Shown here: positions 1 to 581 of the stretch, in pieces
Layout of the letters: each line of letters starts with the position of its first letter
How positions within the stretch are numbered: position 1 is the first letter of the stretch
Assembly (NCBI RefSeq): GCF_003334385.1
Contig: NZ_QOWN01000163.1
DNA: 581 nt
Source: Escherichia coli
GTDB lineage: Bacteria > Pseudomonadota > Gammaproteobacteria > Enterobacterales > Enterobacteriaceae
Direction: 5' to 3' (one strand)
Translations under genes and position numbers: made by a program
The notes under the pieces: model-generated
What the model was told of the DNA's origin: nothing
What the model saw: only the letters and a program-made list of their open reading frames with translations
Database searches by the model: none

Positions 1-581
1 CTGACTGTTGTCAATCTCTGCCCACAGCGCCTCTGCCAGATGCGTTTTTCCTATCTTTTCCCGGAAAAGTTCCAGATAGCCCGCAGCATCATTGCTCGCC
101 CGTCCACTGGCTTCCACAAAAGCAGATTTACCCACCAGGTTGACGCTGCGCACATAAAACCAGAAATCCTTTCCGGGCTTAATGTGCGGACCGGAGACAC
201 TCCACTGACTGCCGGTCCCCAGATAACGGGCAGAGGTTTCCACCTGTGCGGCGTCTGCAATTTTTGCCTCCGAAAACCAGAACTCAAACTGCACCGTCGG
301 GTCATAAATGGTCAGTTTCGGGACTGCCGTTATCTGAAAATACCCCGGCGTCAGTTCAATGCTGGCCGGTGCCGCCGGTGCGTTAATCCGGAACGTGGTG
401 GTGGCGGGTTCGCCCTGCTGGCCATAGCTGTTAATCGCCCTGACCGTCAGGGTGTATTCCCCGGGAGGCAGGCCACTGAAACGGTGCTCCGTATCGGCAG
501 TGATGGCGGTGGTCAGCAGGCGGCTGTTCTCACCGCTTCCACTGGTCAGGCGCAGACTGAAGCGCACGCCCTTCACCACCC
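1..581 (-). CDS. J: Internal fragment (both ends outside the window) of a lambdoid phage/prophage tail-tip host-specificity protein, lambda gpJ-like (tip attachment / central tail fibre protein). Codons run on the minus strand from 579 to 1.
   Basis: Seen in sequence: the minus-strand frame 579..1 has 193 codons with no stop, and uses Leu CTG and GC-ending codons typical of enterobacterial genes. From memory of lambda gpJ: the translation shares stretches such as [21 protein letters not shown] and GRAS-DDA-GYL. Two FN3-type signatures are present ([22 protein letters not shown] and [22 protein letters not shown]). The track missed this frame, presumably because it has no start or stop inside the window. 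Confidence 0.85.
109..360 (-). other. Second, complete FN3-like domain module (residues about 74-157 of the window translation)
   Basis: Starts after the APAAPAS linker with [12 protein letters not shown]. It has a Trp-containing segment (FEFWFSE) and ends with the FN3-type signature [21 protein letters not shown]. Boundaries are approximate. Confidence 0.5.
382..581 (-). other. FN3-like domain module, N-terminal part truncated by the window edge (residues 1-66 of the window translation)
   Basis: Shows the FN3 F-G strand signature, with conserved Tyr, Val, Ala, Asn, Gly and Pro spaced as in [22 protein letters not shown], followed by TTTFRI. It is followed by an Ala/Pro-rich linker, APAAPAS. 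Boundaries are approximate. Confidence 0.5.

Follow-up and report, generated by a model that had tools for sequence, protein, structure and literature searches.

One of the closest described systems to the DNA studied here is gpJ, the J protein of phage lambda. Cryo-EM of the lambda tail with LamB showed its domains to run from hub domains through FNIII-1 and FNIII-2 to the alpha-helical shaft (AHS, residues 809–861), followed by the beta-prism central straight fibre (CSF) and lastly by the receptor-binding domain (RBD) (PMC11101478). In cryo-EM work the rigid FNIII part ends at lambda residue 807–808 (PMC12617516, PMC11101478); residues 1–807 of gpJ were resolved as the rigid proximal part in Ur-lambda (PMC12617516), and FNIII-2 is where the construct gpJ713 starts (PMC11101478). 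The AHS three-helix bundle of lambda anchors the three FNIII-2 units from below. Binding of LamB twists the CSF, upon which the upper AHS helix (809–840) remodels and residues 841–861 become beta-strands, and through this remodelling the FNIII strings are freed and the tube is opened (PMC11101478). The specificity region of lambda J, residues 960–1132, holds 97% of the substitutions by which use of OmpF is gained, and in a set of 1207 natural homologues it has been described as a module that recombines independently (PMC6646904). For LamB binding, the last 249 residues of lambda J suffice (PMC3509688). Gifsy-1 J of Salmonella, which binds OmpC, OmpX and BtuB, is 79% identical to lambda J in its N-terminal part and 18% identical in its C-terminal part (PMC12312913). 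The protein, its domain layout and its recombining C-terminal specificity module have therefore already been published, and a gene fragment such as the one described below is ordinary and of a kind that is already annotated.

Identity and domain map of the window

The window, by which we mean the whole 581-nucleotide stretch of E. coli DNA that was analysed, carries on its minus strand a single open frame of 193 codons (bases 1–579, read from base 579) that is open at both ends. We found that its product aligned with lambda J 646–839 at 62% identity (E 1e-78), that the solved gpJ chains 8iyk, 8xcj and 9wca were its structural matches, and that its PHROG match was phrog_31, ‘central tail fiber J’. 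Against the NCBIfam model NF049904 (lambda_TipJ) the fragment covered profile positions 646–837 of 1163 (325 bits, E 6.7e-97); the cutoff of this model, 1950 bits, was set for whole proteins and is beyond the reach of a fragment, and a full-length relative with 99% identity (L001) passed it with 2121.5 bits. These matches bear out an earlier note on this DNA, made from the letters alone, in which the gene was taken to be gpJ-like. Two other open reading frames of at least 30 residues (84 and 46 aa) were both embedded in the J frame, had no support and were rejected, and an Rfam search of the window gave no match.

The relative L001 is the 1176-residue J protein of E. coli SCU-104 (WP_174147695.1, hereafter J1). 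The window corresponds to its residues 645–837, with 191 of 193 protein residues identical, and the gene sits in a standard lambdoid tail module. The same module (H-M-L-K-I-J, then lom and/or stf) surrounds J in the relatives L001, L002 and L022–L029; the closest relatives have intact J genes of 1157–1176 aa within complete tail modules, and hub domains, CSF (PF09327) and a C-terminal RBD are present in all complete relatives. At the DNA level 122 phage records matched the window. So did 2020 of the 5426 complete E. coli genomes, among which 1869 reached a coverage of ≥80%, and the best identity was 99.0%. Genomes that hold the sequence had a median of 2 and a maximum of 11 matching places, and the matched genes in E. 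coli genomes and phage records were annotated as ‘host specificity protein J’ or ‘phage attachment tail tip protein J’. Roughly one in three complete E. coli genomes carries this sequence family, and the fragment has little significance in itself.

Pfam domains were placed on J1, which is 99% identical to the window (191/193 residues). The map comprised Ig_J (PF24421) at J1 609–712 (E 1.3e-39), Ig_J_second (PF24489) at 714–816 (E 1.7e-37), no family at 817–870, Phage_Tail_Tip at 871–998 and no family after 998. Two consecutive FNIII/Ig-like domains are thus present, and the window spans residues 645–712 of the first and all of the second. On the minus strand of the window, the gpJ fragment (bases 1–579, equivalent to lambda J 646–839) is accordingly divided into the C-terminal two thirds of FNIII-1 (bases 376–579, window residues 1–68), the complete FNIII-2 (bases 94–372) and the first 31 residues of the AHS (bases 1–93), which align without gaps with the lambda upper AHS helix, residues 809–839. 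The first ~36 residues of FNIII-1 lie outside the window, and the part covered is 57% identical to lambda; for FNIII-2 the identity is 71%. The end of FNIII-2 depends on the definition used, since the Pfam envelope reaches window residue 172 (base 64) and the cryo-EM boundary falls at residue 161–162 (base ~94).

The last 36 residues of the frame (bases 1–108) had been singled out in the earlier note as following the second FN3 module. This placement was approximately right, but given the two domain ends, the first 5–15 of these residues still belong to FNIII-2. The accompanying claim that the window ends at the junction of the FN3 part with the distal part was borne out, as the edge falls shortly after FNIII-2, at the beginning of the distal fibre. 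That the window stops at the FNIII-2/shaft boundary is an accident of where it was cut. Taken together, the window is very probably an internal fragment of the gpJ gene of an E. coli lambdoid phage or prophage, made up of part of FNIII-1, the whole of FNIII-2 and the first 31 AHS residues, with receptor specificity residing in a separate module some 183 codons beyond it.

The helical shaft and the joint near GYL

Identity to lambda was 65% in the FN3 part of the window (103/158) and 75% from SGRAS to GYL (9/12), and it fell to 25% after GYL (6/24). None of the 24-column windows over J residues 1–800 was as low as 25% (minimum 29%, mean 73%), and the drop after GYL is therefore no chance fluctuation. 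The earlier observation of a conserved FN3 scaffold with divergence after GYL was thus numerically correct (65% vs 25%). What it had been taken to suggest, namely a receptor-binding module different from that of lambda just beyond position 1, was borne out only in part. Window residues 158–193 align without a gap to lambda 804–839, so the segment is homologous to gpJ and reads as the last few residues of FNIII-2 followed by the upper AHS helix (lambda 809–840), that is, apparently the same amphipathic bundle helix as in lambda with drifted surface residues. After GYL, 7 of 8 hydrophobic positions of lambda stay hydrophobic, and only 2 of the 16 other positions are identical. Proline is absent from J1 808–890, and an AF2 monomer model of J1 802–1176 had a helix over 809–886 followed by beta-strands. 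This model (mean pLDDT 50, and below 50 across the shaft) was too poor for a fold search, and only its secondary structure was used, as weak support. The alignment thus supports a shaft directly after FNIII-2, as in lambda, where it occupies 809–861, and the first 31 of its residues lie within the window.

By homology with lambda, the FNIII domains of this protein would wrap and close the tip of the tail tube, and a three-helix AHS bundle would clamp the three FNIII-2 domains from below. Engagement of an outer-membrane receptor by the distal RBD would send a twist up the beta-prism CSF, the AHS would flip and partly refold into beta-strands, the FNIII strings would part, and the tube would open. 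The RBD, starting ~183 codons past the window, would be swapped independently of these parts. The upper AHS helix would then be a structural and signal-transmitting element with no role in specificity, its mechanical function in this allele being assigned by analogy with lambda. The low identity of the segment to lambda probably has two sources: the surface positions of an amphipathic helix are free to drift, and a different, longer AHS module is joined to FNIII-2 near GYL.

The second of these sources is visible in the relatives. Their shaft has 81 residues versus 53 in lambda, and the difference of 28 equals four heptads. Apart from lambda, each E. coli allele sampled carried the long AHS, namely the L001 family, O157:H7 (L031), O55:H7 (L030), L032 and L034. 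In three of these alleles (L030, L032 and L034) a lambda-like end of FNIII-2 with ‘GYLDFFKG’ is followed by the long-shaft sequence ‘EIGKTHLAQELW’. The DNA of the O55:H7 allele was 96–100% identical to lambda at window coordinates 581–134 and 42–60% identical at 59–44, and it could not be aligned with lambda beyond; its identity to the L001 family rises where the alignment with lambda is lost. Because these three alleles join a lambda-like FNIII-2 to a long shaft, with a crossover at the DNA level in one of them, the comparison points to a recurrent mosaic joint between an FNIII-2 module and a shaft module, within or adjoining the segment after GYL (joint zone at bases 44–134). Two further joints are proposed at domain boundaries, one between AHS and CSF (about J1 868–886), where the relatives begin to diverge 31–49 residues past the window edge, and one between CSF and RBD at the motif GD[ILV]VK.

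With regard to shaft length, lambda appears to be a short outlier, as seen when lambda J 840–861 (L003) is set against L001 6582–6730 (J1 838–887). No discussion of this length difference was found in the literature searched. The unusual shortness of the shaft in lambda, the structural model phage, relative to the sampled E. coli prophage alleles is a mildly useful by-product of this analysis. In E. coli O127:H6 E2348/69 (L033, NZ_LT827011.1 1078256–1081970), ‘EYLNFFEGKI’ is followed by another helical sequence, different from both that of lambda and that of the long-shaft family, which may represent a third shaft module.

Receptor-binding modules downstream in relatives

The region beyond position 1 was followed in 27 relatives that were 91–99% identical to the window (24 with complete tail), drawn from 18 IMG/VR contigs sharing exact bases 1–189 and from E. 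coli and phage records. Along J1, identity to lambda was ~73% up to residue 808 and 33% at 809–838; a 28-residue insertion follows at 839–866 (7% over the column block 839–868). Identity was 30–50% at 869–958, 93% in the 30-residue block 959–988, and ~20% from about residue 1019 to the end. Over the whole central fibre the relatives were 64–70% identical to lambda. Homology to lambda is lost after the conserved GD[ILV]VK (J1 1021, lambda 995), 183 residues or 549 nt past the window edge, and the interval between the edge and the RBD is filled by the rest of the AHS and the beta-prism CSF (Phage_Tail_Tip, J1 871–998). The window itself ends at the equivalent of lambda 839, upstream of both the specificity region 960–1132 and the last 249 residues.

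When the relatives were grouped by module, the segment after GYL together with the next 52 residues formed a single group among all 27, and the 24 complete genes showed two versions of the CSF and six types of C-terminal domain. Identity of these domains to the lambda RBD was 41–44% for types 2, 4, 5 and 6, 25% for type 3 and 24% for type 1. A lambda-like, LamB-specific RBD was thus found in none of the complete relatives, and no part of this region falls within the window. The expectation of a receptor module different from that of lambda just past position 1 was therefore correct for its non-lambda character (24–44% in all complete relatives, none of which showed high identity to the lambda C-terminus) but not for its position, which is 549 nt further. 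Nor does the divergence after GYL signal which module follows. The relatives L001, L004 and L026 are tied at 98.97% identity to the window with the same six mismatches, yet the first two carry CSF1 with RBD1 and the third CSF2 with RBD5. Since an identical segment and shaft is joined to six RBD types, including those of tied genes, the divergence within the window says nothing about the RBD, and the window sequence as such does not predict the RBD type. The 21 closest E. coli matches (≥98.3%) comprise 5 with a type 1 domain adjoining the window sequence and 16 without one there. Type 1 DNA occurs in 29 of 5426 complete E. coli genomes, versus 1869 for the window; of 50,697 phage records, 5 have it, each from a PhiR12 phage. 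As a rough estimate from the relatives, type 1 would carry about half of the weight for the module past this window, type 5 about a quarter and the remaining types the last quarter. None of the six types could be assigned a receptor from the literature searched, and a search for PhiR12 phage literature returned no relevant paper.

The domain of the closest relative, type 1, was close to an orphan by sequence. Among 1.84 billion representatives, a remote-homology search returned nothing beyond the cluster of the domain itself, fragments of it and three Ig-like repeat adhesins that share a generic strand motif, and these matches were set aside as uninformative. Type 1 keeps the invariant framework of lambda-type RBDs (GDxVK, D..FDR and PAGxG). 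An AF2 model of the domain, built from an alignment that contained lambda-type sequences, reached pTM 0.65 with a core pLDDT of 76–87, and its top four Foldseek matches in the PDB were 8xck, 8xcj, 9wca and 9wcb (TMq 0.52–0.54, E 1.5e-5 to 1.3e-4), with generic beta-sandwiches at ~0.3. The comparison of a predicted C-terminal structure with known gpJ receptor-binding domains, which the earlier note had proposed, thus led back to gpJ fibre structures, and on the model type 1 would be a divergent variant of the known gpJ RBD fold, the Ig-like beta-sandwich of 8XCK and 8XCJ. The entries 9wca and 9wcb represent an evolved lambda variant, ‘A8 gpJ 713’, in a closed state and, with OmpC of E. coli EDL933 bound, in an open one, and would be useful templates for modelling the non-lambda RBD types.

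The gene that follows J also differed among the relatives. Type 1 J genes (1176 aa) are directly followed by a side-tail-fibre gene (L001 7601–7786, L028 4101–4286), and J genes with other RBD types by a gene for an Ail/Lom outer-membrane protein (L022–L027 and L029, ~4044–4740). Because the next gene differs between type 1 and the other types, the exchanged module may extend past the J stop codon.

Alternative readings and comparison with known systems

The sole differences between the window and its closest relatives are six clustered substitutions at bases 360–373 (minus strand), in the FNIII-1/FNIII-2 linker (GCGGCACCGGCCAGCATT vs GCAGCGCCTGCCGGTGTT). They affect a stretch of 10 linker residues that reads PAAPAGVELT in the relatives, and three of the substitutions are synonymous. 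The linker is naturally variable (PA[AKV]P[AS]x[VI]ELTPGY), and the patch is without counterpart in the alleles sampled. No exact match to it was found in genome_contigs (180-base pattern) or viral_contigs (67-base pattern, window 334–400), and none of the 18 IMG/VR contigs sharing the exact 189 bases matched the full window, the closest having 6 mismatches. Judged from sequence, the patch resembles a short tract of conversion whose donor was a J allele outside the sample. As the patch is unique and the collections searched held no exact match, the window might itself be an unsampled allele whose distal end bears an RBD beyond the six types; separately, the long shaft might alter the reach of the central fibre or its triggering in comparison with lambda. 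We consider these extensions unlikely.

The reading favoured in the earlier note, that the divergence after GYL is the start of a non-lambda receptor-binding module immediately beyond position 1, agrees with the sharp fall in identity and the mosaic joint at that point, and also with the non-lambda C-terminal domains of all relatives. It is nevertheless largely refuted and in our judgement extremely improbable, given that the segment corresponds to the lambda upper AHS helix with a conserved hydrophobic core (PMC11101478), that lambda homology returns downstream, in the central fibre and at 93% locally, that the RBD starts 183 residues further with six types on the same segment, and that host-range substitutions of lambda lie in residues 960–1132 (PMC6646904). 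The opposite view, in which no module was exchanged at the window edge and the low identity reflects ordinary drift of solvent-exposed helix positions under vertical inheritance, fits the pattern of a kept core with differing surface positions, and coiled-coil-like segments do accept many substitutions. We regard it as very unlikely, however, as the O55:H7 allele, in which close agreement with lambda DNA ends at the joint and no alignment is possible past it, bears the signature of a crossover, and a length difference of 28 residues comes directly after.

It is also conceivable that the fragment derives from a decayed, non-functional prophage J pseudogene, in which case the segment would have no current function. 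J pseudogenes are common among the relatives (PhiR12_2, E2348/69 and L015), and genomes often hold more than one matching place (median 2, up to 11). We consider decay unlikely, since all 193 codons of the window are open, half of the nucleotide changes in the sole divergent patch (3/6) are synonymous, and the closest relatives have intact J genes within complete tail modules. A pseudogene origin would in any case be compatible with the main explanation of what the sequence encodes, namely an internal gpJ fragment that ends in the upper AHS helix.

Several disrupted or altered J genes were observed among the relatives. Compared with L001, the J gene of PhiR12_2 (L002 ~6905, PV340550.1) is broken in two by a deletion of 1 bp; the annotation shows a J of 954 aa and, apart from it, a ‘tail fiber protein’ containing the RBD. 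In the related record PhiR12_2_star the RBD lies inside an intact J annotation, and the split may reflect either an error in sequencing or a real defect that has reverted there. The J gene of E. coli E2348/69 is annotated as frameshifted. Among the IMG/VR contigs, the J frame of L015 stops 175 residues past the window-equivalent start and is probably disrupted, and in L017 the C-terminus is extended by 21 residues past ‘VVMKNPQQ’, probably through a frameshift close to where the RBD ends.

The main lesson for J fragments of this kind is that divergence at the FNIII-2/shaft boundary is uninformative on receptor specificity. Prediction of host range from partial J fragments is unsafe, because the RBD is a separate module ~550 nt further that is shuffled among near-identical genes.

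In comparison with known systems, the window is like lambda gpJ (PDB 8IYK, 8XCG, 8XCI, 8XCJ and 8XCK; NF049904) in belonging to the same family, with the same domain order and with recognisable FNIII-1, FNIII-2 and upper AHS helix. It differs from lambda in its 25% identity after GYL, and its relatives differ further in the AHS (81 vs 53 aa) and in the RBD (24–44% identical); since the RBDs of the relatives are so far from that of lambda, use of LamB by the phage of this window would not be expected. The gpJ proteins of E. coli prophages and PhiR12 phages (WP_174147695.1 of SCU-104; PV340549–PV340554) are much closer, with 98–99% nucleotide identity and an identical segment and shaft, but they do not have the six-substitution patch, and they vary among themselves in CSF version and RBD type, so that, judged from close relatives, more than one module may follow the window. 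Gifsy-1 J and the J specificity region (PMC12312913, PMC6646904) offer the same overall picture of a conserved N-terminal body with an exchangeable, divergent C-terminal receptor module, although that work deals with the ~170 C-terminal residues, which are not part of the window.
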